Assembly: GCA_001820095.1 (NCBI GenBank)
Contig: MHOO01000011.1
Location: 135,227 to 199,226, forward strand
Reading direction: 5' to 3'
DNA: 64,000 bases
Origin: Candidatus Staskawiczbacteria bacterium RIFCSPHIGHO2_01_FULL_39_25
GTDB taxonomy: Bacteria; Patescibacteriota; Minisyncoccia; Minisyncoccales; Staskawiczbacteraceae
Below are positions 17,965 through 56,782 of the stretch, piece after piece (the stretch's first letter is position 1; each line of letters starts with the position of its first letter). Under the pieces are notes generated by a model. That model worked only from the letters and a program-made list of their open reading frames with translations. It was not told where the DNA came from and did not search any database. The position numbers and the translations under genes are program-made.

Positions 17965-18100
17965 ATTTGAAATTTGAAATTTACAATTTGAAATCAATTT
18001 TAAATAACTAAATTTGAAATGATTAAAACCGACGTCGCCTTTTCAAATTAATATATTGTAGTATTGAATTCAAATTTCAAATTTCGAATTTCAAATTCAA
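17965..18100 (+). repeat. Family-1 (TTTGAAAT-type) quasi-palindromic intergenic element, copy 1
   Basis: Fills the rpoD-pyk gap; core GAAATGATTAAAACCGACGTCGCCTTTTCAAATT flanked by complementary TTTGAAAT/ATTTCAAA arms. Confidence 0.65.
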
Positions 18101-18106
18101 AACGCT

Positions 18107-23211: not shown

Positions 23212-23236
23212 CACGGCTTCTTTTATATAGTATAAT
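23208..23236 (+). promoter_or_regulatory. Sigma-70-type promoter for the helicase gene
   Basis: TTGACA (23208-13), 17-nt spacer, TATAAT (23231-36). Confidence 0.5.
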
Positions 23237-31800: not shown

Positions 31801-32429
31801 GCCTGACATTGAGCGAGGATTTGACAGTAAAAGGAAAAGCGACGTTTGAGGGCGATGTTGACACCCAGGGAACGCTGACCTTAAGCAAGCAGCAGGGAGG
31901 GCTGGCTACTATTGGGGCTGGGGCAAAAGAGGTAAGCATTAACTTTAGCAAGCCGTTTGCCGCAAAACCAATTGTTACGGTAACGCCGGAGGGGGAGTCG
32001 GTGGTGTTCAGCACGTCTGACGTAAGCGCCACGAGCTTTACCATTAAGCTGGCGGTTCCGGCAACGTCTAACATCACCTTTGCCTGGATAGCGCTGGCGG
32101 TACAAGATGCAACTTCTATTAGTACGGGAGGTACGGGCAGTGTTGGCGGAATTTCTGGGTCTTCGGGTGGTTCTGGCTCTTCTACAACAGAGCCTGCGGA
32201 CTCTCCGGCGGCTGAAACTGATTCAACAGCAACAGAGACGCCTGCTGGTTCAGAAGCAGAAGAAACCTCTACTTCTGAAACTGAAACTGCGCCTTCTTCA
32301 GAAACTCCGGTTGCCGAAACTCCAGCCTCTGAACCTGCTTCTGAACCAGAACCAGCTCCAGAACCAGAGCCTGCTCCGGCTCCTGCACCAGAACCGACTC
32401 CCGAGCCAGCTCCAGAGCCAACACCGTAA
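25818..32429 (+). CDS. Giant (2203-aa) membrane-anchored fibre protein: HTH-like N-terminus, TM helix, collagen-like run, tail-fibre-type repeats, peptidase-S74-like chaperone module, lectin-like module, Pro/Glu/Ala-rich tail
   Basis: Uninterrupted 6.6-kb ORF (GTG start); 10 G-X-Y triplets at 26757-26846; 79-aa repeats; SDVITKENIV...MVPLLIKSIQDL module; PEPAPEP tail. Confidence 0.85.
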   Translation: MKINEEKAEIFLDPEDSKKKLWAASADLISLSEAAKFTPYSAEYLSYLARKGKIEAVKLSRDWMTTKEIVVEYVKEQEDRQKKLSERFQQAEQFRHHAQAGFIGMKILAVASAAMMTVSSVLSPTVTEYKNLAEKVSELPTKVSEIKMPQMPEIPEITPAGVSQSTVNYLTTISNAANNHAENLARSAGNNLANLSISVNNKADNLARSAGNGLANLNQSVNDGLINLTKPLTATLQSYNVGNISGRYKVEIPASGTAKKNQLAVVPATPTAPAVKDSATTAATAPVVTSKAPSVDDIIAQKLQLMLAQGLLTGPAGPIGPTGPAGLQGPLGPAGPQGPAGSGIVSNGGGRTSAVVGTTSIVTYIPANPPVNNGGSSIAGFTTLSADTFNTKDATLSGSLAVTGTSTLASITASGAVNLTGTTTIAALTTTTLNPGFTAGSIVFQGASNLAQDNANFFWDDTNNRLGIGTASPGALLDVRGAAIFNEDGADADFRVEGDTDANLLFIDASTDRVGIGTATPSALFSVGSGSPFQVDSSGNIASSGTTGVTLSGVGADLTFTGTGNHDVSASSGTLRVGASTIIGNVQAVDDTIDIGTAGVRFDKIYANEVNASILVGTISGGNVQAETLSINSDNATADTEDAFLAFERGTVTPNALLQWDATSDLFDFNSRLRLTGTILGDPSIIFNSATASDTDYWISLQEDGAGDDDDTFQIGKGTIPGTSSFVTINKDGNVGIGTSTPMSAAGFRKGLEIAAEPNTFTPSLVLRSTASTSNNAQIMFTGPSGNNWAIGTDVASGSGSRDFHFYDLNSLTLKMVVQSSTGNVGIADSSPDDLLNIHSASAAAGMAITSLGTDTDPYIKFELADGTPTFTMGVDDSDSDKFKISTTALGTSDRLVIDSSGNVGIGDTSPDDLLNIHSATAAAGLAITSLGTDTDPYIKFELADGTPTFTMGVDDSDSDMFKISTTALGTSDRLVIDSSGNVGIGDTSPDDLLNIHSASAAAGLAITSLGTDTDPYIKFELADGTSTFIMGVDDSDSDKFKISTTALGTSDRFVIDSSGNVGVGNTDPYAQFHLGARYAVTPTNITSAKAAITNGALYIGTTAQGSNNTNVDLLELGHIKTGAFGGGSVNINFRGFDAGNGTNRGVLAQINGGQKNDDLVGSGFLAFGVAADEATTPTEAMRIVETGLIGIQNTDPYARLHVGAKYPFTPTGATSGKAAITGGSLFIGTSAQADHNLNIDLLDLTQTQNGTVNGGSVNINFRVYDTGNNSNKGVLAQVVGGRKDGISAAGSGFLAFKTAAAAATTSTERMRIDENGNVGIGDTSPDDLLNISSAAAEAGIAITSLGTDTDPYIKFELADGTPTFTMGVDDSDSDMFKISTTALGTSDRLVIDSSGNVGIGTASPTASLHIKAGTATANTAPLKFNSGTLLTTAEAGAVEFLTDAYYGTITTGAARKTFAFLESPIFTGTVTIPTPFTLGATSVTTTGTQLNYLNAATGTTGTASTNLVFSTSPTITTPIFTTNITTPLVIGGTSTTANLTLQTTTGVGTTGADMHFLVGNAGATEAMTILNNGNVGIGDTDPGSLLQVAGRIIGGANTAPSSNNTTTPLYLFTSANGGIRLHPSAATNSTTIIDVSDASTRYAQIQYDGTNSILNISSQQSTTGQIKLSTGSGTEAVRIDASQRVGIGTTAPQSLLDVQGPTGTGAATAGILTLATKELTIVDDDQLGRINFNAPLESDGSDAILAGAAIWAEAEATFSSTVNNTALVFGTATTSAAVERMRIDASGNVGIGDTTPSYKLDVTGDAHFTANMTLDAGLTVASTASIGSTVTPSNSTLFVNGTLAIGSDALNNRFSTTTSGTGSTQMFIGNSTIDVTAPSDVITKENIVSTQYGLNDLMKLSVKEFNYKKEYVDEGEMQKLHTGMIAQEVEQIFPEATIYRSDGLKSIDYSKMVPLLIKSIQDLRLEFTAALGDYLAANPNALTGSSGSLSEMKSLTLSEDLTVKGKATFEGDVDTQGTLTLSKQQGGLATIGAGAKEVSINFSKPFAAKPIVTVTPEGESVVFSTSDVSATSFTIKLAVPATSNITFAWIALAVQDATSISTGGTGSVGGISGSSGGSGSSTTEPADSPAAETDSTATETPAGSEAEETSTSETETAPSSETPVAETPASEPASEPEPAPEPEPAPAPAPEPTPEPAPEPTP

Positions 32430-33651: not shown

Positions 33652-33794
33652 AATTTGAAATTTTCAATTTGAAATTTGAAATCAATTTGAAATTATTGAA
33701 TTTGAAATGATTTAAACCCGGCGTCGTGTTTTCAAATTTAAATATTCAATCATTGAAATATTGAATTCAAATTTCAAATTTCAAATTGAAAATT
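33652..33794 (+). repeat. Family-1 quasi-palindromic intergenic element, copy 2
   Basis: Core GAAATGATTTAAACCCGGCGTCGTGTTTTCAAATT with TTTGAAAT/ATTTCAAA arms; ends about 10 nt before ATG 33804. Confidence 0.65.
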
Positions 33795-33803
33795 CGCAAA
33801 GAT

Positions 33804-34803: not shown

Positions 34804-34812
34804 TGATATAAT
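34804..34812 (+). promoter_or_regulatory. Extended -10 promoter element (TGaTATAAT) 8 nt upstream of the giant-gene ATG
   Basis: TGATATAAT at 34804-34812; ATG at 34821; implies a leaderless or near-leaderless mRNA. Confidence 0.4.
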
Positions 34813-34820
34813 TGATAAAC

Positions 34821-37800
34821 ATGGTTCTGGGAATCCATATTTTGAAGTTGAAAAAAATACGTAAAAATACGCAGAAATTTTTTGGTATTTTTATATTGAT
34901 ATTCAGCATTTTTAATGTATTTTTAGCATTTCCCGCTAATAATGTCCTTGCCGTTACGGGAGCTCCTAAAATTTTATCCCAGCAGGGCAGATTGCTGAAC
35001 TCAAGCGGGGACTTGCTGGGCGGGTCATCGGGAACAGATTACTGCTTTAAGTTTTCCATTTACGACGCTTCAAGCAGTGGCACCAAACTGTGGCCTTCCG
35101 GATCTCCGTCCAGCATGACTTTTAATGTCAAAAATGGAGTATTTAACGCCTTAGTTGGCGATACGTCGGCTGGGGGAGATGTGCTGGATTACAATTTCCA
35201 AGATAATGATACGGTATATCTTAATGTGGAAGTTGCAACCAAGTCAGGATCCACCTGCGGCACGTTTGAAACATTAACACCACGCCAGCGCGTGGCGTCT
35301 TCTGGGTATTCATTAAATGCCAATACGGTAGGCGGGTTTACTCCCGCGCAATCGGCAACCGGAAATCAAATACCTGTTCTTACCTCCGGCAATCTTATTT
35401 TGGGATCGGGCGGCGGACTTGTCATTACCGGAGGAGCCGGCAATCCGACTGCTACCAATGGCACCGTTTGGTACGATACCACGGCCAATAAATACAAAAT
35501 TGTTGAAAATGGCACCGTAAAAACGCTTTGCAACACGACTGATGCGGGCTGTGGCGCGGGTGGCAGTGGCTCAACCCTTCAGGCCGCGTATGACGCTACC
35601 GGTGGCAATATCATCACAACTACGACCGCGAGGGATATAGACTTTGTGCTTGATAATACTGCCACTGATTCTAATTTTGATATTGATATTAACGCCGGCT
35701 CAACCTCTACAGTTTCAATTTCGCGGCTTGACGGGGCGGACACGGGATTTCCCGCCCAGCTTTTGCTTCTTGAAAATCTGGATACGACCGATGGGCCGGG
35801 GATGGGGCTCCTGATAACTTCGGTAGGAGCGCTTGATACCGCAATAGACCTTTCATCTGCTGCTATAGATACTGCCTTGAATGTAGGAGGCAATAACATC
35901 ATCGGCGGAACCGCCGGAATAACTTTTACGGACTTTATCTTAAGCACTGACGGAAAGATAACTTTTGCATCCGATACGACGGGCGACCAGATGTTCATTA
36001 CAGCTCCGTCGGTTAATTTTCAGGCGTTGGTGGTAGACGCAACCACGAATGATTCCACGCAAACGGAAGGAATGATTGATTTGAATGTTGACACGGCGAC
36101 CAATACCGCGATCGGCGGTCTCGCGCTTGATTTTGCCGTTAAAGACGCGGGGGGAAATTTAACCGTCTACGGAAACAGAACGAATGTGACGGTGGACACG
36201 GACACTGGGCAATCACACACCGTTGCTGGAGAATATATTGGCATCACCGCAAACGACGCGAGCTCAACTACTTACGGTTTGCAAATTGTCGCTGAAGATG
36301 CGGGCGAGCAAGTTGCGACCGCTGGGCTTTTGATTGAAAACTTGCAGGCGACAGACATTGATTTGACGGATGCCGTGCTCGTTCGCGCGACGACGGCGGA
36401 CTCCATCGTTGACGCTTTTGACGCGTCCGATACTGAAATCACCAACGCATTGAATGTCGGGGATAATATCGTAACGGGAGGAGACTGGACTGTCATCAAC
36501 GCCACTGATATTGCCGAAGGCCTCACCTTTACTCTCGCCGGCGGAATAGGCTTTGACATCACCGGTACTGCCGGCCAGGATTTCAGGGTTACCAACACCG
36601 GCGGATCAATCGCGCTTAATGCATCGGAGGCAATCGCGAACGCAATTGCTATTAATGCCTCTAACGCCGCCGGCGGAATTGATATTGATTACGGCACCGG
36701 CGATATCGTTATTTTGGGGACCGGCGTCGGCGCCGACTTCACCCTAGATGCTGATTTAATTTCAATAGACGGAACAGGAACTTCCAACTTTACCATCACC
36801 GGAGCGGTAGATGAAGATTTTACTATTGCTCAAGTTGGTAGCGCGGATAATTCTCTTATTATTTCTTCAACAGGTACAACGGGAGACGCTCTCCAAATTA
36901 AAACCACCGCGGGAGGAATTGATATTACTTCAACGGGTGCGGCCGCCGGGGAAGATATTGATATTACGACTAATGCGTCCGTTAATATTTTTTCCTCTGA
37001 AGCGGCGGTGTCGGACGCGATTAAACTTACTGCCTCGGATGCGGCGGGACAAATTTTCATTGACGCGGGTACGACGGACAAAACTGCGGATGCGATACGA
37101 TTTGATGTGGATATAAATTCGGCAAGCGTTGACGGACTGTTTATGGATTTGGATGTCGGCACGGCGCTCTCATCGGGCGAAATAGGAAATGGCTTAAATA
37201 TTGATGTGGCGGGCCTTGCCGGAGATAATGCGGCATCCGCGATAAATGCGATTTCGCTCACGGGAGATGTAACATCCGCAGGAACCGTAACCGCGATTGA
37301 ACTAAACGGCTCGTTTGACGACAGCATTGATTTATCGGGCGCTTCTACCACGATTGATATTCGTCTTGACGACGGACTTACTATTTCTCAAACATCAGAC
37401 GATGATTTGGATATTGTTGAAGGAAGCCAAACGCTTAATGTTGATTTTGCTGAAACGACTGCCAGCACCATCACGTTTGGAACAGCATCTAATTTAGAAT
37501 TTGAATCAACAGCAAATTCGGCCGCCTCGTTAAAACTTGAGTCAACTTTGGGCGGCATAGACATCTTTGCATCGGGAGCCGGAGCGGGAGAGGATATTGA
37601 TATTATGGCAACGGGGTCTTCTATAAATATTCAATCATCCGAAGCGATTTCTGACGCGATATTGATTGAAGCGACCGGCGCGGGCGGCTCAATGAGATTA
37701 ACTGCGGGAACGGGAGAGCCATCGGCGCTCACTGACGGAAGCGATATTGAATTTTTGACGACTGATGATATTCTTTTTACTCCCGCTGACGATGTATCTA

Positions 37801-40800
37801 CTCGGCTTGCCGCGGGCGATAAGCAATTTTTAATTGATGCGCTGACTAATGCAAATACTTCTACTGGCGGAGTTATTGATTTAAATGTAAGCTCAATAAC
37901 CACCGGTAATATCGGACTCAATATTGATTACACTTCGGCGGACGGCGTGGCGAATGACGCGGATATGTTTGGTGCCAAATTTAATATCACGCAAAGCGAT
38001 ATTAGCGGGGATTTGTTCGGACTTGTGATTTCAAATCTTGCGACTAGCGCGGCTGTCGGCGCCGACGCCGTTGAATGTTTACTCTGTCTGGACAATGTTG
38101 AAAATACTGCCAATGTTTTAAGTGACGCGATACGGATAACAAACTCCGGCGGAACGGATAACGCCATTACCACCGGTCTTGATTTTGATACGGTAAATAT
38201 CGTAACAGATATAGAATTGCAAAATGGCGAGACGATAGATAATAATACCAACGGCACCATTCTTTTCACTGCGCCCACAACGCAAACATCCGGCATAATG
38301 CTCGTTGGCGATGGCTCGGGCGATTATCTGTCATTTTCCGAAGAATCCGGAGATCCTACTGGTTGCGCAGCGGGAGAATTTAGAATTTGGGCGACAACTA
38401 CGGGGAACATTTTACGAAAATGCGAGAACGGAGCGGTCTCAAATCTTGACGCGGCCGGATCGTGGAGTGAAATTACTGCGCCGTCCGGGAATCTTACTCT
38501 TGACCACAAAGAAAACATTACCACTTTTACGTGGGATAATTTTGACGGAATCGCAAACGCCCTTGATTATTTCAAACTCGCTTCAACAAATGATGCGGAT
38601 ACGGACGGTGCCACACAGAGAATCATGGTCATTACCAATAATGACGCGGCCGGCGCGGGAGTCGGAACGACCGAAACGCTTCTTGCCCTTACCAATGCTG
38701 ACGCAAACGAAGCGATTACCAACGGCATTCTTTTTGACGCAACCGGAGCGGGAGGGGCTACCAACGCATTGCAGATAGCAAATTCAGGAGGGGGTACCAT
38801 TACGACTGGCATTAATTTTGCTTCCGGCACCATTACCACGGGCATTGATCTCTCGGGGGCGGCTTCTACAACCGATATCATTTTGGATGATGGACTGACG
38901 ATTGCCCAGACTTCAGACAATGATTTGGATATTGTTGAAGGAAGCCAAACGCTCAATATTGATTTCGCCGAAACAACAGCAAGCACCATCACGTTTGGAA
39001 CAGTATCTAATTTAGAGTTTGAATCAACGGCAAATTCGGCCGCCTCGTTAAAACTTGAGTCAACTTTGGGCGGCATAGACATCTTTGCATCGGGAGCCGG
39101 AGCGGGAGAAGACATTGATATTGTAGCTACGGGGTCAAGCGTGAACATTACTTCAACTGAAGGAGTTGCAGACGGGCTCGTATTCACTTCAACGAATGGC
39201 GGCATTGACATAACAACTACGGGAGCCGCCGCCGGAGAAGATATTGATGTAACCTCAAGCGCATCCTTGAATCTCGTCGGCCAGGAAGCGGTAACCGACG
39301 CGGTCTTGATTGACGCCTCCAACGCTTCCGGCGGAATAACCATGAGTTTTGCCGCCGGCGGGCTGACAATGGCAAACGATGCGGCCAGCTCAGGCACGCC
39401 CACAGGACTTGTATTCACTGGCGCGCTGCACACGGCTTTAGCCAATGCCGAAGCGACGGATGTAAATTTTAATTTGGGACGCACGGTGCAGTTTACCGGA
39501 ACAGCTACGCTACCAACACAAAGAGCATTCAGAATTCAAAATCCGACTTATTCTTCAGACACAGCCACCAAAACAATCAACAATGCGATAACATTGTCTA
39601 TTGGAGGGCCGCCCATTCAAGGAACAAATGTTACCTTAGGCAGCACCTATGGATTAAAAATAGACACCGCCGCCGTTAGCACCGCCACCAATGCCTATGG
39701 CTTGTATGTTGAAGTCCCAACTGGGGCGACCAACAATTGGTCTGCCTGGCTGACCGGCTCAATGGGCGGTCGGCAGGGGACTTGCGTAAGGACTGATACG
39801 GGGAACCTAACAGTAAACTGGTCAACTGTTACCGGCGGTGCCGGAAATAATTGCAATTCTTCAAGCTCAAACCTCGGCGTAAATAATTTAACTTATTACG
39901 TTGAACAAAATGCCGCCGCGACCGCAACGGTTTTTACCGTTAACATTGATACTATACCCAATATAGACGGAACTATAGCGTTTGTAGTCACAAGAGCTCT
40001 TACGTGCGGTGCTGTAAGCAACAGATCAGTTGTTATCCAAGTTCAGGGGACTACGGTGATGACCAACACTTGTTCGGCAACTGTAACTGATACGGAGTTG
40101 AGCGGCGTTGTCATTAGGGGCAATGGCACGTGGCGCCATATCGGTTATTTTCCGGGTTCCACAAATGACTTGGAAGCGTCAGACTTGGCCGAGTGGATTT
40201 CTTATACTGGCCAAAAACCTGTAGCAGGAGAATTATTATCGGCGGCAAATGCATCTCAGACGGTAGAAAAATCAAATGGTGCCTATCAAAGAGGGCTTTT
40301 AAGCTTTGTTTCCACCAAGCCGCATACTACTATGGGCAAGCAAACGGAAAATTCCGTGCCAATAGTCTTAGCGGGAAGAGCGCCGGTGATTGTAACGACC
40401 AGAAACGGCAATATAAAAAACGGAGATCCCATTACTTCATCTTCAATGCCCGGAGTTGGGATGCGCGCGTGGAAAGCCGGCATTACGGTGGGGAAAGCCC
40501 TTGAAAATACGGATGATTGGAACGACGCAAATTGTCCGGCGGTTTCTTCTTATGAAAACATTTCATGGCCGGAAGATGACGGGACAAATCCCGCGCGCCC
40601 GTGCTTTAATGTCAATGGCGTGTATATCGGAAAAATTATGATGATGATGGAATACGGGTACACAGAGGGCGATGCGGAAGGATTTGTTGACGCAGCGATT
40701 AACAACGCGCCCGAGGGAATGGAAGCGGCGCAGGCGATACTTACCGCGCTTTCAAGTAATAAGCAAACTGATGTAGAGGAAAAAGACCTTTCTCAAATAT

Positions 40801-42089
40801 ATACTGACAGAATCATTGCCGGCCTTGAAGTTATTGCTCCCGAAATCACAACTAAAAAATTGAGTGTTGACGAAATTATTGCTGGGAAAGTTAACGCCAA
40901 GCAAATTTTAGGGCTTGAGATATTTACCGATAAAATTTCCGTTTTGGACGCGGCGGTTGCCGCGCTTGAGTCGTCGCAGGAAAGCGCATCAGAGGATATT
41001 TCAGAAAGCATTGCAGAAAATTCAATAAGCGTCCAAAATCTTATCGCGGCAGTTTCTGGCATACAGCCGCAGATTGATGCGAACGGGGAGACGATCGCGA
41101 ATTTGCAAATTACATTTGATAAATTAAACGAGAACTTCACCGTGCTTTCAGCCGCGGTTTCCGGCATACAGCCGCAGGTTGATGCAAACGGGCAGACACT
41201 TGCGAATTTGCAAGCTACCTTTGACGAATTAAGCAAGAACTTCACGGTCTTCTCAAATTATTTTGCTTTTGATGTTGCCGATGTTTTGCAGATAACCAAG
41301 GGGCTTAAAGTAAATGCGCTTGCAACTTTTTCGGGGGGATTGCAAGTTGATTCCATTGATTCTATTTCCGGCATGTTGTCATTTGTTTCCGATGTTTCTT
41401 TCTTTGGCACGCCGTACTTTAATACCGATACCGCTGGATTTGCGGTTATACATTCCGGTGATCGTTTTGTAGATATAGTATTTGAAAAAGAATACCTAGA
41501 AAAACCGATAGTTAACGCAACTATTTCTCTTGAATCAGATAATCAGTTGGCAGATGAATTGGTATTTACCAGCGATATCAGGTTTATTGTCACCAAGAAA
41601 AGCGTTAAAGGATTTACCATTGTTTTAAATAAACCAGCTCCTGCTGATATTATATTTAGCTGGACTGCGTTTGCCGTAAAAAATCCAAGAACATTCTTTT
41701 CATTAAAACCGGAAGTTGTGGCGCCTGCAGCTTCAGAACCGGCGCCTAGTTTGGCGCCTGCATCGGAGCCTGTTGTTGAACCTGCTATTGAACCTGTCTT
41801 AGAGCCTGCTTCTGAACCACAGCCTGCTTCGGATTCAGAGCCAGCGCCAGAATCTGTTCCGGAATCTGAATCTACTTTGACTCCAGCTTCTGAACCAGTT
41901 CCTGAACCTTCACCAGAACCAGCTCCGGCTGAATCTGACCCACCTGCAACCACAGAGCCGGTTACAGAGCCAGCTCCAGAACCTGCCCTCGAACCAGTGC
42001 CAGAATCAATTTCTGAACCAACTCCGGAGTCAGCCCCCGAGCCTGCCCCAGCCCCCGAACCAACTCCTTCTCCTGAACCAGCCCAGTGA
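34821..42089 (+). CDS. Giant (~2422-aa) secreted or anchored fibre protein with internal duplications, coiled-coil segment, lectin-like module and Pro/Glu/Ala-rich tail
   Basis: Uninterrupted 7.3-kb ORF; hydrophobic signal/anchor FFGIFILIFSIFNVFLAFPA; its C-terminal module is collinear with that of 25818..32429. Confidence 0.85.
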   Translation: MVLGIHILKLKKIRKNTQKFFGIFILIFSIFNVFLAFPANNVLAVTGAPKILSQQGRLLNSSGDLLGGSSGTDYCFKFSIYDASSSGTKLWPSGSPSSMTFNVKNGVFNALVGDTSAGGDVLDYNFQDNDTVYLNVEVATKSGSTCGTFETLTPRQRVASSGYSLNANTVGGFTPAQSATGNQIPVLTSGNLILGSGGGLVITGGAGNPTATNGTVWYDTTANKYKIVENGTVKTLCNTTDAGCGAGGSGSTLQAAYDATGGNIITTTTARDIDFVLDNTATDSNFDIDINAGSTSTVSISRLDGADTGFPAQLLLLENLDTTDGPGMGLLITSVGALDTAIDLSSAAIDTALNVGGNNIIGGTAGITFTDFILSTDGKITFASDTTGDQMFITAPSVNFQALVVDATTNDSTQTEGMIDLNVDTATNTAIGGLALDFAVKDAGGNLTVYGNRTNVTVDTDTGQSHTVAGEYIGITANDASSTTYGLQIVAEDAGEQVATAGLLIENLQATDIDLTDAVLVRATTADSIVDAFDASDTEITNALNVGDNIVTGGDWTVINATDIAEGLTFTLAGGIGFDITGTAGQDFRVTNTGGSIALNASEAIANAIAINASNAAGGIDIDYGTGDIVILGTGVGADFTLDADLISIDGTGTSNFTITGAVDEDFTIAQVGSADNSLIISSTGTTGDALQIKTTAGGIDITSTGAAAGEDIDITTNASVNIFSSEAAVSDAIKLTASDAAGQIFIDAGTTDKTADAIRFDVDINSASVDGLFMDLDVGTALSSGEIGNGLNIDVAGLAGDNAASAINAISLTGDVTSAGTVTAIELNGSFDDSIDLSGASTTIDIRLDDGLTISQTSDDDLDIVEGSQTLNVDFAETTASTITFGTASNLEFESTANSAASLKLESTLGGIDIFASGAGAGEDIDIMATGSSINIQSSEAISDAILIEATGAGGSMRLTAGTGEPSALTDGSDIEFLTTDDILFTPADDVSTRLAAGDKQFLIDALTNANTSTGGVIDLNVSSITTGNIGLNIDYTSADGVANDADMFGAKFNITQSDISGDLFGLVISNLATSAAVGADAVECLLCLDNVENTANVLSDAIRITNSGGTDNAITTGLDFDTVNIVTDIELQNGETIDNNTNGTILFTAPTTQTSGIMLVGDGSGDYLSFSEESGDPTGCAAGEFRIWATTTGNILRKCENGAVSNLDAAGSWSEITAPSGNLTLDHKENITTFTWDNFDGIANALDYFKLASTNDADTDGATQRIMVITNNDAAGAGVGTTETLLALTNADANEAITNGILFDATGAGGATNALQIANSGGGTITTGINFASGTITTGIDLSGAASTTDIILDDGLTIAQTSDNDLDIVEGSQTLNIDFAETTASTITFGTVSNLEFESTANSAASLKLESTLGGIDIFASGAGAGEDIDIVATGSSVNITSTEGVADGLVFTSTNGGIDITTTGAAAGEDIDVTSSASLNLVGQEAVTDAVLIDASNASGGITMSFAAGGLTMANDAASSGTPTGLVFTGALHTALANAEATDVNFNLGRTVQFTGTATLPTQRAFRIQNPTYSSDTATKTINNAITLSIGGPPIQGTNVTLGSTYGLKIDTAAVSTATNAYGLYVEVPTGATNNWSAWLTGSMGGRQGTCVRTDTGNLTVNWSTVTGGAGNNCNSSSSNLGVNNLTYYVEQNAAATATVFTVNIDTIPNIDGTIAFVVTRALTCGAVSNRSVVIQVQGTTVMTNTCSATVTDTELSGVVIRGNGTWRHIGYFPGSTNDLEASDLAEWISYTGQKPVAGELLSAANASQTVEKSNGAYQRGLLSFVSTKPHTTMGKQTENSVPIVLAGRAPVIVTTRNGNIKNGDPITSSSMPGVGMRAWKAGITVGKALENTDDWNDANCPAVSSYENISWPEDDGTNPARPCFNVNGVYIGKIMMMMEYGYTEGDAEGFVDAAINNAPEGMEAAQAILTALSSNKQTDVEEKDLSQIYTDRIIAGLEVIAPEITTKKLSVDEIIAGKVNAKQILGLEIFTDKISVLDAAVAALESSQESASEDISESIAENSISVQNLIAAVSGIQPQIDANGETIANLQITFDKLNENFTVLSAAVSGIQPQVDANGQTLANLQATFDELSKNFTVFSNYFAFDVADVLQITKGLKVNALATFSGGLQVDSIDSISGMLSFVSDVSFFGTPYFNTDTAGFAVIHSGDRFVDIVFEKEYLEKPIVNATISLESDNQLADELVFTSDIRFIVTKKSVKGFTIVLNKPAPADIIFSWTAFAVKNPRTFFSLKPEVVAPAASEPAPSLAPASEPVVEPAIEPVLEPASEPQPASDSEPAPESVPESESTLTPASEPVPEPSPEPAPAESDPPATTEPVTEPAPEPALEPVPESISEPTPESAPEPAPAPEPTPSPEPAQ

Positions 42090-46520: not shown

Positions 46521-46668
46521 CTTGAATTTGAAATTCGAAATTTGAAATTTGAATTCAATATTTTAATATTTAAATGTTCCAATTTGAAAACACGACGTCC
46601 GGTTTAAATCATTTCAAATTTGATAATTTCAAATTGACTTCAAATTGTAAATTGTAAATTTCAAATTT
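46521..46668 (-). repeat. Family-1 quasi-palindromic intergenic element, copy 3 (inverted)
   Basis: Reverse complement contains GAAATGATTTAAACCGGACGTCGTGTTTTCAAATT with the same arms. Confidence 0.65.
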
Positions 46669-46672
46669 TTTC

Positions 46673-48127
46673 ATGTTGACCAAAACTGATTTCATGAATT
46701 ACTTGGAATGCCCTATGTATCTGTGGCTTTCCAAACATCGGCCCGAGTTGCTCCCAAAAGATACGCCTGAAAAAGAGCGTATTTTTGCAATGGGCCGGCA
46801 GGTGGATGAACTTGCTAAAAAGTTATTTTCAGCCGGCATTGAAGCGCAAGGATATAACGAACAAGGCTGGGAAAATACCAAAAAAGCAATAGCGGGGGGA
46901 GCTGAAATTATATTCCAGCCGACAGCGGTTTCAGGAAACATTGGGTGCCGGGCCGATATTCTGGTTAAAAATAAAAAAGATAATACCTGGGATATTCACG
47001 AGGTAAAAATGGCCACCAAGGTAAAGAAAGAATATATTTTTGATGTCGGTTTCCAGCGCATCTGTTTTGAAAATGCTGGCATAACCATTTCAAGCACCCA
47101 TCTTGTTCATATTAATAGTGATTATGTTCGGAAAGGTGAAATTAACCCCCGTGAATTATTTGCCATCAGCGATATTACTGATGAGGTAAATAGAAAACTG
47201 CCTGAAATCCAAGATGAAATTGAAAGAGCGCTAGTGGTAGCAGATTGGAAAGAAGATCATTATGCAAACCTTGTTAACGGATGCCATAACGCAAAAAACT
47301 GCGAATATATAGAATATTTCTGCAAAGAGAATCCAAAAGTATATTCATTTTCCAGTGTCCTTTTGCCCCAAACGCTGCTAGCGTTATTGGATAGAAATAT
47401 TTTGGATTATCGTAACGTGCCAGCTGACATATTACAGGCTGTTGGGTACGAACTAGAACAAGAATTCACCGAAATAAATGCGCTGGCTATTAAAAAAGAG
47501 TTTGAAAAATTGCAGTATCCGTTATATTTCTTTGATTACGAAACGTACAATTCTCCAATACCCCCCTTTGACGGAGTAAAGCCCTACCAGCAGATTCCGT
47601 TCCAGTATTCGCTGATGATACAAGATAACCCAACAGCTTCCGTACGCCATACTGATTTTTTGATGAAGAAATTTGAAAATCCGATGCGCGACCTTCTTTC
47701 AAAACTTGAGAAAGACATTGGGCCGACGGGAAGCATTATTGTATGGTTTGCGCTGTTTGAATCCAAGCGCAACGAGGAAATGGCGGAACAAGAACCCGAA
47801 TTCATAGATTTTTTGAAATCAGTAAATGAACGGATGTTTGACCTTATGCTGATATTCAAATTTAAAAATAAAATGTACATTAAAAGCGAGTTTAAAAAGT
47901 TAGCTTCGTTAAAAATAGTGCTTCCTGTTCTATGTCCTGAACTTTCCTACAGTTCTTTAGCGATTCAAGAAGGGGGAACTGCTTCTGCCAGCTGGCCGAT
48001 TCTTACCAATGGCGTACTTACTCCGCATGAGAAAATAAAATTGGAAAACGACATGCTTGAATATTGCAAACGGGACACCCAGGCTATGGTAAGCATTTTG
48101 CATCGCGTTTATAAAGATATAGAATAA
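46673..48127 (+). CDS. DUF2779 protein: N-terminal Cas4-like PD-(D/E)xK nuclease plus C-terminal DEDD-type exonuclease-like domain
   Basis: YLECPMYLWL, ADILV..DIHEVK; C-terminal FFDYET and YCKRDTQAM motifs. Confidence 0.8.
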   Translation: MLTKTDFMNYLECPMYLWLSKHRPELLPKDTPEKERIFAMGRQVDELAKKLFSAGIEAQGYNEQGWENTKKAIAGGAEIIFQPTAVSGNIGCRADILVKNKKDNTWDIHEVKMATKVKKEYIFDVGFQRICFENAGITISSTHLVHINSDYVRKGEINPRELFAISDITDEVNRKLPEIQDEIERALVVADWKEDHYANLVNGCHNAKNCEYIEYFCKENPKVYSFSSVLLPQTLLALLDRNILDYRNVPADILQAVGYELEQEFTEINALAIKKEFEKLQYPLYFFDYETYNSPIPPFDGVKPYQQIPFQYSLMIQDNPTASVRHTDFLMKKFENPMRDLLSKLEKDIGPTGSIIVWFALFESKRNEEMAEQEPEFIDFLKSVNERMFDLMLIFKFKNKMYIKSEFKKLASLKIVLPVLCPELSYSSLAIQEGGTASASWPILTNGVLTPHEKIKLENDMLEYCKRDTQAMVSILHRVYKDIE

Positions 48128-51509: not shown

Positions 51510-52685
51510 ATGGAAAAGATTGAAAAGATAATAATAAAAAAAGGCGACAATAAGACTATTAGTGATAATTTCATAATGGGTTTAAAACCATATACTGTTT
51601 TAGTTGGAGAAAATAACTCTGGAAAAACAAATTTCGTAAACGCTTTTTATGAACAAGAAAAGAAAAAATATAATATTATATTTTTCCGGGCAACTAATAT
51701 TGAACTTGAAAAAGCAGAGGAGGCAAATACTAGTAAAAAGACATCTCCTTTTTATGAACTTCTAGCTGAAATACTTAAAAAAGAAAATTTAAATCTAGCT
51801 GAGAATATAGTAAAACCAATAAATTCTAAATTATCTGCTATTACAGAAAAAATCAACGAGGGTATTGATTTTATTAAAAATAAAAAAATTATTTTGAAAA
51901 TGGTTGAAACACTAACAGAAGAGGCTGTTATTAAAAATTTAATTCCACTTAAAATTTTAGATAAACATTGGAGAAATGAGAAAGAAGTAGATCCTGATCA
52001 AATCGGACAAGGCACTCAAAGAATGATAATTTTTTCTCTGCTAAAATATTATTCAGAACAAAATGAAGGTAACGAGAAGCTTAATTTTTTTATTATTGAA
52101 GAACCAGAAGTTTATTTGCACCCCAAATACAAGAAAGAGTTCAATCAAATTCTATACAAGATATCGGAGAAAGAAAATAACCAGGTTTTAATTGCTACTC
52201 ATGATCCATATTTTATAGAAATGAATGCCAATGATGAAAGTAAGAAGGCTATACAAGCTCTTCAGAGAAATGAAAATACAGGGTTTACAGAGGGTAAGAA
52301 AATCACTAAACAAATCTTACAAGAGGTTTCTCATGGGGAAATTAATTATAGAGTTTTTGAGGTTTGCACAGATTCTTTCCATAACGAATTATACGGGCAC
52401 CTACAGGAAATAACACAAAAATATTATGAAAAAGATATAGAAGAATTTTTTGGCAAAAATGGTTTAATAAAAGATATGAAATGGACTCGAGAAAAGGCGG
52501 GGGAGCCCGATCCGGATTGGACAAATTATGATGTGACTCTGCAAACTTTTATTAGGAATAAAATTCATCATCCAGAGAACAAAGCAAAGAAAAATGAGAA
52601 GTTTTCTTCAGAGGATTTAAAGCAATCCATCGAAGAAATGATTAGTTTCATAGAAAGAATAAAATCTGGATCTATTGCAGTTTAA
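51510..52685 (+). CDS. OLD/ABC-type ATPase lacking a TOPRIM domain, with an unassigned C-terminal domain containing RNKIHH
   Basis: Walker A GENNSGKT, GQGTQR signature-like loop, Walker B FFIIEEPEVYLHP, ATHDP. Confidence 0.8.
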   Translation: MEKIEKIIIKKGDNKTISDNFIMGLKPYTVLVGENNSGKTNFVNAFYEQEKKKYNIIFFRATNIELEKAEEANTSKKTSPFYELLAEILKKENLNLAENIVKPINSKLSAITEKINEGIDFIKNKKIILKMVETLTEEAVIKNLIPLKILDKHWRNEKEVDPDQIGQGTQRMIIFSLLKYYSEQNEGNEKLNFFIIEEPEVYLHPKYKKEFNQILYKISEKENNQVLIATHDPYFIEMNANDESKKAIQALQRNENTGFTEGKKITKQILQEVSHGEINYRVFEVCTDSFHNELYGHLQEITQKYYEKDIEEFFGKNGLIKDMKWTREKAGEPDPDWTNYDVTLQTFIRNKIHHPENKAKKNEKFSSEDLKQSIEEMISFIERIKSGSIAV

Positions 52686-53235
52686 CTACTTCATGTCTTG
52701 GCCAACCCAAAGTGACTTCTTAGAGATTTACAGAATTGCTCACAATAATGCCACTAATCTACTAGAAGAAGCAGAGTTACTTTATGATAATGAATATTTT
52801 GCACGAGCCTATACATTAGCATTTACTGCTATTGAAGAAATATCCAAATCACAATTTGCAGCAGATGTGTTTACTGGTCTAAAAAGAGAAGAAGATTTCA
52901 AAAAGTTTTATAGGAACCATAGCGAGAAGATTGGTAGAATGACTTGGGCTCATATCGATGCTAATTCCTGTTCACATAATTTAAAATGGGTCGGTCCCGA
53001 TATCTACGACCTAGAAAAAATAAATCCTAAAGAACCTCAGTTTGAGAAAAGGCAAGATAGTTTGTATGTAGGAATCGATTTCCGAAACCAAAAAATTAAG
53101 AAACCAAAGGAACAAGTTTCGGAAGCAGATGCAAAGGAAATGATTAGGATTGTAGAAGTCACTCTTGAAAGGATTTGGGAGGTTTCTGGAGAATTTGGTG
53201 GCAATCAAGTTGGGACGAAAGGTTTTATGAAATAA
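52675..53235 (+). CDS. AbiV-family (HEPN-type) abortive-infection protein
   Basis: NNATNLLEEAELLYDNEYFARAYTLAFTAIEEISK pattern; candidate Rx4H (GRMTWAH); start is ATG 52675 (11-nt overlap) or ATG 52693. Confidence 0.7.
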   Translation: MQFNYFMSWPTQSDFLEIYRIAHNNATNLLEEAELLYDNEYFARAYTLAFTAIEEISKSQFAADVFTGLKREEDFKKFYRNHSEKIGRMTWAHIDANSCSHNLKWVGPDIYDLEKINPKEPQFEKRQDSLYVGIDFRNQKIKKPKEQVSEADAKEMIRIVEVTLERIWEVSGEFGGNQVGTKGFMK

Positions 53236-53327
53236 GTAAAAAATAAATTTATGCCAGCTTACTGAACCAGGGAAAAAACTTTTAAAGAGCTTCAAAAGTG
53301 AAAAAAGGAAGTGAATAATAAAAAACA

Positions 53328-53654
53328 ATGAATTCTTTTATAATATTTGTAGTCGGGTTGGTGATTGGAGCCATTGTAGTATTTTTAGTTTTTAGAAATT
53401 TTCGGAACGATAAAACTAACGAAAAAAATACTTTGGATTTGTTGAATCAGAATAAGGCGAAAATCGTAGAAGAAAACGAAAAGAAAATTTTGGATTTGAT
53501 TGCTCAAAAAGGTGAAGTTTCAAATGATGATGTTCAAAAACTACTTAGCATTTCAGATGCCGGAGCAACCAAGTACATGCAACGATTAGAAAGCAAAGGG
53601 AAAGTAGTCCAAGTGGGGAGCGAAGGTCACGCAGTGCGGTATAAGCTAAAGTAA
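53328..53654 (+). CDS. Membrane-anchored winged-helix protein
   Basis: N-terminal TM helix; C-terminal wHTH-like VSNDDVQKLLSISDAGATKYMQRLESKGKV. Confidence 0.6.
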   Translation: MNSFIIFVVGLVIGAIVVFLVFRNFRNDKTNEKNTLDLLNQNKAKIVEENEKKILDLIAQKGEVSNDDVQKLLSISDAGATKYMQRLESKGKVVQVGSEGHAVRYKLK

Positions 53655-53708
53655 AAGCCAAAACCAACGGCTACCACGCCGTGGTAGCCGTTGGAGCTTA
53701 AGGGAAAC

Positions 53709-54092
53709 ATGAAAAAGCAATTACATTTCATCTTGCTAAACGGAGCCATGGGTTCAGGTAAATCGACCGTCGCTGAATTATTAGGGAAGAAGCTAGAAAG
53801 AACAGCAATACTTGAAATTGAAGAAAAAAGCAATATGCATTTTTTGCATATTGCAAATTCTGATAAACCCGTAGCTATGTATTCACTAGACGTTATTTTA
53901 AGTGTCGGTTATAGAACTAATTCCATAATTGCCATAGAATTTAGAAAATGGGCTACTAAAACCCTTCGCGAGCGTATTACCAAGGGTTACACCATTAATA
54001 AAAAACAAATTGCCAAAAACTACGATGCGTTTATGAAATCAGTCGGCGATATTCAAGCGCTGTTGCCAGAGCATGTGGCAATAGTAAACTGA
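53709..54092 (+). pseudogene. Chimeric remnant: P-loop kinase N-terminus fused to an internal RhuM-family fragment
   Basis: LNGAMGSGKST Walker A for ~40 aa, then YSLDVILSVGYRTNSIIAIEFRKWATKTLRERITKGY (RhuM core); both parts are far shorter than their families. Confidence 0.55.
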
Positions 54093-54096
54093 TATC

Positions 54097-54369
54097 ATGA
54101 ACAAAAATAATTTTTTACAACATATTAAAGTTAGAATTTGTTATGATAAGGAATTAAAAATGATTACTAAGAAAGACTTTGAAAATGCTATAGTTTCAGA
54201 AGGAATAAACTTTGTAACTTTTTTGCATTTTATCTTTAGCTCGTATCCTGATATTACTAAAAAGTTTCCCCCGGGCACATTAGGATTTAAGTTGAACGGT
54301 AAAGCTCCTGGAGGATACGATATTTTACAGGATGGAGATATATTAGAACTTGTTACATCGCTTACTTAA
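54097..54369 (+). CDS. Small hypothetical protein, possibly beta-grasp (ThiS/MoaD-like) without a terminal GG
   Basis: 90 aa; IKVRI...FKLNGK...LQDGDILELV pattern; weak. Confidence 0.4.
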   Translation: MNKNNFLQHIKVRICYDKELKMITKKDFENAIVSEGINFVTFLHFIFSSYPDITKKFPPGTLGFKLNGKAPGGYDILQDGDILELVTSLT

Positions 54370-54378
54370 AAATATACT

Positions 54379-55218
54379 ATGATTCAAGACAAATATAGCG
54401 CATTATGGGTGTCGCATTCCTCAATTGGAGACTTTATTAAGTGTCCGAGGGCGTACTACTTGCATAATATTTACCGGACGAAGGATAATCGGAAGATAAA
54501 TACCGTAAGTCCTGCTTTGTCGCTAGGGATTGCGGTGCATGATACGCTAGAAAATTTGGCGAATTTTAAGACAGAAATTCGGTTTAATGTGCCTTTGGAA
54601 GTGGCGTTTGAAGAAAATTGGAAAAAGGTTTCAGGGAAGCTGGGTGGGTTTAAAAGCGAGACAGAAGAAGCGGAAGCCAAAGAGCGCGCCCGGAATATGG
54701 TGCTGCGGGTGCAAAAAAATCCGGGGCCTTTAGCCAAATTAACGGTTAAGTTACGGCCGCATGCCAATGACATGCCCCCTAATTTTTATTTATCGGAGGC
54801 TGACAACATTATTTTAAACGGAAAGATTGACTGGCTGGAATATGTGCCAGAAAATGACAGTATACGGGTAATTGATTTTAAAACAGGGAAAAATGAGGAA
54901 AGCCCGGATTCGCTACAGCTGCCTATTTATGCCTTATTGCTGCATAATTTGCAAAAACGGAAAGTGTCGGGAGCGGCGTATTGGTATTTAGATAAGGACG
55001 ACAAACCAAAAGATGTTGCGTTGCCAGAGATTGACCCGGCCAAAGAGCGGGTGCTTGCTATTGCTAAGAAAATAAAAGAAGCAAAAGAACGGGGCGTATT
55101 TGAATGTTCGCGCAAAACATACGGTTGCTTTGCATGTACGCCTTTTGAAAAAATTATAAAAGGCGAAGCCGAATTTGTGGGAATAGGAGGATATAATCAA
55201 GAACTTTATCTAATTTGA
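54379..55218 (+). CDS. Cas4/RecB-like PD-(D/E)xK nuclease with a Cys cluster
   Basis: N-terminal FIKCPRAYYL, IDFKTGK, C-terminal CSRKTYGCFAC. Confidence 0.8.
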   Translation: MIQDKYSALWVSHSSIGDFIKCPRAYYLHNIYRTKDNRKINTVSPALSLGIAVHDTLENLANFKTEIRFNVPLEVAFEENWKKVSGKLGGFKSETEEAEAKERARNMVLRVQKNPGPLAKLTVKLRPHANDMPPNFYLSEADNIILNGKIDWLEYVPENDSIRVIDFKTGKNEESPDSLQLPIYALLLHNLQKRKVSGAAYWYLDKDDKPKDVALPEIDPAKERVLAIAKKIKEAKERGVFECSRKTYGCFACTPFEKIIKGEAEFVGIGGYNQELYLI

Positions 55219-55344
55219 AATTTGAAATCAATTTGAAAATATCAAATTTGAAATGATTCAAACCCGACGTCACGTTTTCAAATTAAAATATTGTAACATT
55301 GAAATATTGAATTCAAATTGTAAATTTCAAATTTCGAATTTAAA
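55212..55344 (+). repeat. Family-1 quasi-palindromic intergenic element, copy 4
   Basis: Core GAAATGATTCAAACCCGACGTCACGTTTTCAAATT; overlaps stop codon 55216-18 and ends 3 nt before ATG 55348. Confidence 0.65.
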
Positions 55345-55347
55345 ATT

Positions 55348-56055
55348 ATGAACTTACAAAATAAGGTAATAATTTTGACGGGGGCGGCCAGAATTGGACA
55401 GCATGTGGCGGAGGAACTAAAAAAACGAGGGGCAAATTTAGTGATAGCATATTTTAAAGACCCAAAAGAAGCTGCGCTTGGTTTTGGTATGCAGGCTGAT
55501 GTTTCAAAAAAAGAAGATGTGCAAAGAGTAGTAGAATTTACAAAAGAAAAATTTGGCCAGATTGACGCGGTGGTGCATATGGCGGCTATTTATGAAAAAA
55601 GCATATGGGGAGAATTAAATGAAGGCCACTTTGAGAAGAATATGAATGTGATTGCCAAAAGCGCTTTTTTGTTTGGTAAAATAGCGGGGGATGAAATGCT
55701 TAAAAATCAAGGTGAAATCAAAGGCAAGATGATTTTCTTTTCCGACTGGTCAGTGCTGGCAAGGCCGTATAAAGATTATCTGGCGTATAACGCCGCAAAA
55801 TCAGCTGTGGTAGGTCTTACAAAATCATTTGCAAAAGAACTGGCGCCATCTATTTTGGTGAATGCCATAGCTCCTGGCCCCATGCTTCGTCCACCGGATT
55901 TAACCGATGAAGAAAATAGAGAAGTGCTTGCCGGCACGCTGTTAAAACGGTGGGGCGGACCAGAAGAAATTGTAAAAGGGGTTTGCTATCTTTTGGAGTC
56001 TGATTTTATTACCGGTCACATATTAACTATTGATGGGGGAAGGACCATTGCTTGA
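55348..56055 (+). CDS. Short-chain dehydrogenase/reductase
   Basis: TGAARIG cofactor motif, YNAAK catalytic motif. Confidence 0.9.
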   Translation: MNLQNKVIILTGAARIGQHVAEELKKRGANLVIAYFKDPKEAALGFGMQADVSKKEDVQRVVEFTKEKFGQIDAVVHMAAIYEKSIWGELNEGHFEKNMNVIAKSAFLFGKIAGDEMLKNQGEIKGKMIFFSDWSVLARPYKDYLAYNAAKSAVVGLTKSFAKELAPSILVNAIAPGPMLRPPDLTDEENREVLAGTLLKRWGGPEEIVKGVCYLLESDFITGHILTIDGGRTIA

Positions 56056-56073
56056 GTTATCCACACCCCACCC

Positions 56074-56102
56074 TTGACACGGTTTCTTGGCAGGAGTAAG
56101 AT
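56074..56102 (+). promoter_or_regulatory. Sigma-70-type promoter in front of the G-free tract
   Basis: TTGACA (56074-79), 17-nt spacer, TAAGAT (56097-102). Confidence 0.45.
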
Positions 56103-56114
56103 ACAGGTAGAAAG

Positions 56115-56256
56115 ATCATTCACAACTCAATCCTCCAACCCAACCCAAAAAATAACAAAATCCAACCCTTACCTTAAACCCACCCACCTATCCAACTCCT
56201 CCCCCTCCCTCCCAAAAACCCCAACTAACCACTCCACATCCCAAAACCAAAACCAC
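56115..56256 (+). other. 142-nt tract with no guanine on the + strand (C/A-rich), including four C-runs
   Basis: Direct reading: no G between G56114 and G56257; CCCCCTCCCTCCCAAAAACCCC at 56201-56222. Confidence 0.9.
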
Positions 56257-56337
56257 GAAGGCGCCTCTCATATGATTGGTGCTTTTATTTTGGATTTTTT
56301 TGCCCTGTGGGCAGTACGGACTTTAATGCTAAAATCA

Positions 56338-56366
56338 TTGACATAAGGGATGTTAGATGTTAGGAT
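56338..56366 (+). promoter_or_regulatory. Second sigma-70-type promoter upstream of csp
   Basis: TTGACA (56338-43), 17-nt spacer, TAGGAT (56361-66). Confidence 0.45.
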
Positions 56367-56480
56367 GACTTTACTTGTATAGGAGACTGGGTCGGGTTTC
56401 AAATAGCAGGTAATAAAATCAAATTCTAGCTTATAGGTTCTAGTGTTTAGACGCTAAAAGTTCTATAGCTAAAGCAAAAA

Positions 56481-56678
56481 ATGACAGGAACTATCAAAAC
56501 TCTTACCGAGAAAAACTTTGGATTCATTGCTCGCGAAGGCGAAGCAAAGGATCTCTTTTTCCACGCTAATGATTTGAATGGAGTATCATTCAGTGAGTTA
56601 AAAGTGGGAGATGCTGTTACCTTTGATGTTGTTGAGGGCGAAAAAGGCCCAAGCGCAAAGAATGTAACCAAGGCCTAA
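56481..56678 (+). CDS. csp: Cold-shock protein (CSD)
   Basis: 65 aa; RNP1-like NFGFI and RNP2-like DLFFH motifs. Confidence 0.92.
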   Translation: MTGTIKTLTEKNFGFIAREGEAKDLFFHANDLNGVSFSELKVGDAVTFDVVEGEKGPSAKNVTKA

Positions 56679-56691
56679 TACTTAGGTAACT

Positions 56692-56721
56692 AAAAACCAC
56701 CGCCTCAAAGCGGTGGTTTTT
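56692..56721 (+). terminator. Intrinsic terminator after csp
   Basis: AAAAACCACCGC-CTCAAA-GCGGTGGTTTTT. Confidence 0.75.
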
Positions 56722-56782
56722 AGTTATACGATATCAGAGCGGGTTCATTGAATTTTAACAGGTATTATTCTATGATTATGTT

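Follow-up and report, generated by a model that had tools for sequence, protein, structure and literature searches.

Between the gene for an SDR-family oxidoreductase and the cold-shock gene csp, a member of Candidatus Staskawiczbacteria carries a tract of 142 consecutive nucleotides that does not include a single G on the + strand. We asked what this tract is: whether it belongs to csp, encodes a protein, acts as DNA or as RNA, or serves no purpose at all. To our knowledge, no sRNA biology is known from Parcubacteria. Should the tract act as RNA, it would provide the cleanest natural case of a transcript built without structure or translation, an extreme loading site for Rho or landing site for another protein, and a first view of non-coding regulation in the Parcubacteria. 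The analysis covered a contiguous stretch of 64,000 nt (64 kb; in the following called the window, to which all positions refer) and a set of related loci. We found that the tract is best described as a putative orphan non-coding unit of promoter and terminator, the body of which would yield an extreme, rut-like naked C/A RNA.

The features of the locus are compiled in Table 1. By direct count, the tract consists of 66 C, 55 A and 21 T, which bears out the G-free stretch described in an earlier note on this DNA and lies far beyond chance. The second-longest G-free run in the window measures 47 nt; for runs without A, C or T, the maxima are 42, 52 and 44 nt, respectively. With a G frequency of 0.224 in the window, the probability of a 142-nt G-free run amounts to 0.776^142, or ~2e-16, per position. 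At the intergenic G frequency of 0.177, the intergenic DNA of the window is expected to contain 7e-9 such runs in total; this DNA shows no general bias of C over G. Neither flanking repeats nor a mobile-element structure were found around the tract. The short G-free stub directly 3' of the SDR stop codon resembles the main tract (TCCACACCCCA compared to TCCACATCCCA at 56233).

Table 1. Features of the SDR-csp region, with positions given in the window.
Feature	Position	Strand	Evidence or remark
SDR-family oxidoreductase gene, 235 aa	55348..56055	+	PF00106/PF13561
G-free C/A-rich stub TTATCCACACCCCACCC, directly 3' of the SDR stop codon	56057..56073 (17 nt)	+	
Promoter P1, TTGACA-17-TAAGAT, predicted start ~56109	56074..56102	+	10/12 match
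P1-proximal segment ACAGGTAGAAAGATCA, predicted to be transcribed	56103..56118	+	
G-free C/A-rich tract, 142 nt	56115..56256	+	direct count
Four-C-run core; i-motif pattern on the + strand, G4 pattern on the - strand (template)	56201..56222		
T1, terminator-like hairpin (56257-56286) followed by the U-tract UUUUAUUUUGGAUUUUUUU	56257..56301	+	
Promoter P2, TTGACA-17-TAGGAT, extended -10 TG	56338..56366	+	10/12 match
csp 5' leader	56367..56480	+	conserved box GAGACTGGGTCGGGTTTC at 56383-56400, hairpin ~56427-56471
csp, 65 aa, cold-shock domain	56481..56678	+	PF00313
Strong intrinsic terminator of csp	56690..56723	+	-22.1 kcal/mol
MASE1-PAS histidine kinase, then response regulator	3' of the csp terminator	+	

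Two promoters had been proposed for this region, P1 and P2, and both were verified as matches to 10 of the 12 consensus positions. Sites of this quality are rare, with only 10 instances on the + strand of the window. Three of these 10 possess a perfect TTGACA element at 17-nt spacing, and two of the three flank the tract. At another place in the window, a perfect consensus promoter (TTGACA-17-TATAAT, 23208-23236) is located ~75 nt 5' of the ORF at 23310-24596.

Directly 3' of the tract we identified T1, which was absent from the feature list of the earlier note. Its stem comprises 9 bp, including 3 G-U pairs, and closes a 12-nt loop; the predicted folding energy is -14.1 kcal/mol (z = -3.1 compared to shuffled sequences). 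The hairpin is followed directly by the U-tract, as is characteristic for intrinsic terminators, and it is weaker than the terminator of csp. A consensus terminator scan missed T1 because the 12-nt loop exceeds the 8-nt rule. P1, the tract and T1 line up as promoter, body and terminator within an intergenic region, which is the layout of a small-RNA gene. The conservation looked for in such genes was not found, as the tract is absent from relatives and belongs to no Rfam family.

More than 20 contigs that were assembled independently (NCBI, ENA, JGI) show the identical tract sequence, and therefore an assembly artefact is ruled out. One contig (L013, ENA scaffold_103646) starts at the position corresponding to 56262 of the window. 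The break hence lies inside the T1 hairpin, just 3' of the tract, as would fit a low-complexity sequence that is difficult to assemble when coverage is low.

In an RNA that lacks G, neither G-C nor G-U pairs are possible, and AUG, GUG and UUG codons as well as a Shine-Dalgarno (SD) sequence are excluded. Inspection of the tract confirmed that these start codons and SD sequences are all missing, and RNA folding returned a minimum free energy of 0 kcal/mol, in line with the proposal that such an RNA would be obligately unstructured. The RNA copy of the tract is therefore predicted to be naked, single-stranded and free of ribosomes. From a practical point of view, the locus offers a natural "G-less cassette" equipped with a bacterial promoter and terminator.

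Could the region nevertheless code for a protein? A 90-codon frame (56074-56346) is open across the tract, a 24-aa hydrophobic peptide could start from an AUG at 56272, and small ORFs occupy the same slot in relatives. However, long open frames are expected in G-free DNA because only TAA can occur as a stop codon there. The codon log-likelihood of the 90-codon ORF is 3.9 bits, compared to 28 +/- 10 bits for 90-codon pieces of real genes, and the probability that 47 tract codons are all G-free given the encoded amino acids is 10^-6.3. Moreover, this ORF would begin with a TTG that belongs to the P1 -35 hexamer and precedes the start site predicted for this promoter, and its hydrophobic C-terminus results from translating the T1 U-tract into Phe, Ile and Leu. 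No gene is called across the tract in any assembly. We regard the chance that the region is protein-coding as close to negligible, and the codon score as well as the avoidance of G agree with the earlier judgement that the ORF is an artefact of composition.

Short colinear matches, such as CAAAAAATAACA compared to CAAAAAATGACA, also led us to test a csp copy in which G was lost or replaced. The local comparison with controls gave p = 0.02-0.06 and the global comparison p = 0.6-0.7, and this origin was rejected.

The tract had initially been viewed as a leader of csp or as an element otherwise linked to this gene. That view could not be upheld, since T1 separates the tract from csp and the conserved csp promoter and leader start only at P2, downstream of the tract. 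In relatives, the conserved csp unit consists of TTGACA-17-(TG)TAnnAT, TACTTG, the box GAGACnGGGTCGGGTTTC, AGCAAGGTAAAA and the start codon. Judged by this conservation, P2 and the leader following it are the csp promoter and leader shared with relatives, and therefore P1 is not needed by csp. At locus L021 the conserved csp promoter directly overlaps the SDR stop codon. The upstream promoter is itself of the csp-promoter type: TTGACACGG is common to P1 and the csp promoters of loci L068, L069, L075 and L086, and its -10 element TAAGAT recurs in the csp promoters of L021 and L086. In addition, the P1-proximal segment ACAGGTAGAAAGATCA resembles pieces of csp leaders, namely CAGGTAATAAAATCA at 56407-56421 and GTAGAAAGA in L068. 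Based on these likenesses we infer, weakly and from short matches, that P1 is probably a partial duplicate of the csp promoter and leader.

Closest to the view of the earlier note is a long csp leader, for which transcripts from P1 would read through T1 and the tract would participate in antitermination by Csp or act as a translation enhancer. P1 is indeed oriented toward csp and lies 400 nt upstream of it, and T1 is only moderately strong, with -14 compared to -22 kcal/mol for the csp terminator. The E. coli proteins CspA, CspC and CspE are antiterminators. Furthermore, G-free CA-rich leaders raise translation; the TMV omega leader and the CA-repeat enhancers of E. coli are essentially G-free, C/A-rich and unstructured translational enhancers. 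The tract shares with these enhancers the lack of G and of structure, and its host is predicted to initiate translation largely without SD sequences. In contrast to them, it is not followed by a plausible ORF; T1, P2 and a structured leader come before csp, which places the tract >220 nt away from the AUG. With T1 and the independent, conserved P2 intervening, and with the tract missing at every orthologous csp locus examined, we consider a long csp leader quite unlikely.

The position upstream of a cold-shock gene is a trait that the tract has in common with the cspA-type 5' UTR thermoregulator (RF01766) and with cold-box leaders. However, none of the Rfam families matches the tract; the sole match is weak, sub-threshold and located at 56450-56723. 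The tract also lies outside the conserved csp leader of the clade, which starts at P2. Whether functional or not, the tract changes nothing in how the regulation of csp is viewed.

Relatives were gathered by scanning genomes with the SDR protein and metagenomes with Csp, and by looking up contigs that carry homologues of SDR. The resulting comparison set comprised 5 syntenic SDR-csp loci, 77 related csp loci and 615 kb of related DNA, with the nearest relatives sharing ~81% identity for SDR and 91% for Csp. None of the 5 syntenic loci possesses a comparable tract or a G-free run of >46 nt. Within the 450 nt upstream of csp at the 77 related loci, the longest G-free run had a median length of 22.5 nt and reached 51 nt at most, and none was C-rich. 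Sliding-window scans, nhmmer and blastn-short yielded no match to the tract in the 615 kb of related DNA, and no similarity to phages, plasmids or viral contigs was found. Likewise, Rfam returned no match to the tract, neither at gathering thresholds nor at permissive E-values. The search for a G-free tract upstream of csp in relatives, which the earlier note had suggested, was thus negative at all 5 syntenic and 77 related loci. Absence from orthologous csp loci is one half of what that note had named as speaking against its reading.

Contigs from the same species proved to be clonal: they differ by 0-3 SNPs over 3.4-6.7 kb, and the spacer has none. With the tract missing in relatives and a clonal population, evolutionary comparison yields no evidence of selection. 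As far as the compared sequences indicate, the tract is a species-specific insert in a variable spacer of this Candidatus Staskawiczbacteria (Parcubacteria, CPR) from groundwater. Compared to the related loci, ~290 extra nt, comprising P1, the tract and T1, are placed ahead of the ancestral csp promoter.

The SDR-csp spacer appears as a variable slot with different cargo in different relatives. Its length is 84, 165, 178, 580 and 696 nt in the 5 syntenic loci. In L064 (3100-3780) the spacer contains a promoter and a 93-aa ORF, in L074 (918-1500) a promoter and an unrelated ORF of ~76 aa, and in L078 (1320-1500) two tandem promoters.

These comparisons are relevant for the possibility that an insertion hotspot has recently taken up the tract as neutral, low-complexity filler, derived from slippage or another source and placed with or beside a duplicated piece of the csp promoter. 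The restriction to one species, the lack of homologs in relatives, phages and plasmids, and the spacer of 84-696 nt with differing cargo all fit such an origin, as do the G-free heptad-type runs of A, T and C with lengths of 30-87 nt that are common in intergenic DNA of the clade. Yet, drift cannot produce 142 nt that lack one base at a C content of 46%. The heptads are AT-rich and in this respect unlike the tract, in which TRF found no tandem unit. Moreover, the tract is neatly framed by a strong promoter of a rare kind on one side and a terminator-like hairpin on the other, and CPR genomes are compact. Therefore, filler is in our view rather doubtful, although it has to be taken seriously. 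If the tract is filler only, it would mean that compact CPR genomes tolerate inserts of extreme composition in a recombination-prone spacer.

The heptad repeats deserve a separate mention. The G-free repeats (AAATTTC)n, AAATCCN and TCTAAAT occur directly 5' of start codons or in intergenic DNA, at 18073-18106, 33770-33800, 46625-46680 and 55310-55347 of the window as well as in L014 (3890-3990) and L077 (471-557). They appear to be a leader or low-complexity motif typical of the clade.

The composition of the tract drew our attention to rut sites, the loading sites of Rho. Rut sites have been described as a C-rich, G-poor bubble of C over G, extending over 70-80 nt or more, with regularly spaced C or YC residues and a pause hairpin within 150 nt downstream (PMC6144790, PMC6407284). 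In the tract, 78-nt windows reach 43 C and 0 G, and the bubble of C over G covers positions 56040-56318. YC dimers occupy 32% of the tract positions compared to 8.5% in the window. The pattern [(YC)N9-13]6 has 9 start positions in 148 nt, corresponding to 61 per kb compared to 1.7 per kb in the window. The T1 hairpin (56257-56286) immediately 3' of the tract falls within the ~150 nt in which a pause site is expected. Every sequence descriptor of a rut site is thus present in extreme form in this candidate, at 46% C.

Characterized rut sites, such as lambda tR1 and trp t', are untranslated, unstructured, C-rich and G-poor over at least 70-80 nt. They contain spaced YC or C residues, are placed after a stop codon and are followed by a pause hairpin, and the tract resembles them in all these traits. 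It differs from them in that the C/G ratio is infinite over 142 nt, compared to typical values of >1-3, in that a promoter of its own is located directly 5', and in that the hairpin with its U-tract could terminate transcription without Rho.

Between the SDR stop codon and 56257, neither the terminator scan nor folding detected a terminator-like site, and therefore SDR transcripts would have to traverse the tract. By contrast, L064 and L078 possess a canonical intrinsic terminator directly 3' of SDR, where the source species has none. This difference led us to consider the tract and T1 as the termination region for SDR and P1 transcripts. The tract would then be transcribed as the 3' UTR of the SDR mRNA and, from P1, as part of a second transcript of ~190 nt, with both transcripts ending mostly at T1. 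The naked, C-rich RNA of the tract would bind Rho in the manner of a rut site and T1 would serve as the pause or termination hairpin. The net effect would be to halt transcription coming from SDR and P1 before it reaches P2, and thereby to shield the csp promoter. We tentatively prefer this reading, in which the tract and T1 constitute a composite terminator and insulator within a species-specific non-coding unit, and put it at somewhat less than an even chance.

Several observations caution against the composite terminator. A hairpin terminator alone would be sufficient, so that a rut site before T1 looks redundant, and a promoter such as P1 ahead of a terminator is odd and looks redundant as well. 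Rho sites need to be G-poor but not wholly G-free. The intergenic DNA of the window lacks a general bias of C over G, the tract is missing from all relatives, and the same-species contigs are clonal. Neither rho nor hfq was found in the window or in the collected loci, which together represent just part of the genome, and no literature on Rho or Hfq in this organism was found.

The gene-like succession of promoter, body and terminator would also suit a trans-acting sRNA of ~190 nt from P1 to T1 that acts on a C/A-binding protein (Csp, Rho or one of KH type) as its platform or sponge. Its RNA is predicted to be wholly accessible, and as P1 is of the csp-promoter type, co-regulation with csp is conceivable. 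With regard to the possible partner, the eukaryotic cold-shock-domain protein YB-1 binds the A/C-rich elements CAUC and CACC, which can be counted in favour of such an sRNA, whereas bacterial Csps favour U-rich single strands. Against a sponge further stand the lack of conservation and of any repeated binding motif in the tract beyond chance. The pairing of the tract with the G-rich box in the csp leader (-24.7 kcal/mol) is no better than that of shuffled sequences (p = 0.35). Complementary targets are not enriched in the window, and a nearly SD-free genome offers few such targets for CCUCC motifs. In sum, a sponge or platform sRNA seems unlikely to us.

Known sRNAs provide only partial parallels. 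RsaE/RoxS, with their C-rich loops, and CrcZ, a sponge for Hfq/Crc, are structured sRNAs that span genera and target SD sequences or Hfq. Like these, the P1-T1 unit has a stand-alone promoter and terminator and exposes C-rich or CA-type motifs. It is set apart from them by the absence of structure, conservation and an Rfam match and by its SD-poor genome. Type I 3'-UTR-derived sRNAs, such as DapZ and MicL, have their own promoter near the end of the upstream gene and share the terminator of the mRNA. This arrangement is mirrored here, where 19 nt separate P1 from the SDR stop codon and the SDR mRNA would have T1 in common with the short transcript. However, the P1-T1 unit has no known seed, target or chaperone and is not conserved.

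Two sequence observations belong to this context. First, in the 25 nt that precede 60 long ORFs, GGAG or GAGG was detected in ~5/62 start regions, and A and T prevail in the leaders; the source genome is hence predicted to initiate translation in a largely SD-independent manner. The idea that the tract mimics an anti-Shine-Dalgarno sequence, suggested by four instances of CCUCC, was weakened by start regions almost devoid of SD motifs. Second, the 13-nt sequence TGGGTGGGTTTAA within the neighbouring PD-(D/E)XK gene (54641-54653) is perfectly complementary to the tract at 56175-56187. About 0.1 complements of 13 nt are expected by chance in the window, and this one is probably due to chance.

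We also considered a dedicated naked RNA, transcribed from P1 to T1, that would titrate a protein binding single-stranded C/A sequences, either Rho, for which it would be a decoy, or the adjacent Csp. To this idea we assign only little probability. If true, it would define a new class of protein-sponging RNA by a missing base rather than by a fold, and this in an organism from the little-studied CPR.

At the DNA level, attention had been called to four C-runs at 56201-56222 and to a G4-type pattern on the complementary strand, and a motif scan confirmed both. This core, CCCCCTCCCTCCCAAAAACCCC, conforms to the four-run rule (at least 3 G or C per run, loops of 1-7 nt), is the sole motif of four C-runs of three or more in the window and has, at -2.32, the most extreme G4Hunter score of the window. 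Conceivably, a G-quadruplex on the template strand or an i-motif on the C-rich strand might modulate transcription or replication at csp. However, one canonical motif of 22 nt cannot account for 142 nt without G, the motif is not conserved, and another motif of four G-runs occurs by chance at 35007 in the window. A DNA element is hence highly improbable as the explanation of the tract.

In the course of the comparison, the csp leader box itself emerged as the more general result for the clade than the tract. The strongly conserved box GAGACnGGGTCGGGTTTC, located at 56383-56400 in the window, was detected at 30 of the 78 csp loci from Parcubacteria (L021, L064, L068-L143), where it sits 16-58 nt 3' of a TTGACA-17-TAnnAT promoter. 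It is flanked by the mutually pairable sequences TACTTG and CAAGGTA. Being invariant, the box offers no covariation, and it matched no Rfam family. Hence, it may represent an undescribed element of cold-shock leaders. Just 5' of the csp start codon, the leader in the window additionally contains a species-specific hairpin of ~45 nt (56427-56471) that is missing in L021 and L068.

As regards the surroundings of the locus, nearly all genes of the window are carried on the + strand, including two giant ORFs, one of 2203 aa at 25818-32429 and one of 2425 aa at 34812-42089. Just 5' of SDR, at ~51510-55218, Pfam domains mark a cluster reminiscent of a defence island. Its members are an AAA_15/AAA_21 ATPase, HEPN_AbiV, HTH_24 and RhuM-like proteins, a 90-aa protein without assignment and a PD-(D/E)XK/Cas4-like nuclease.
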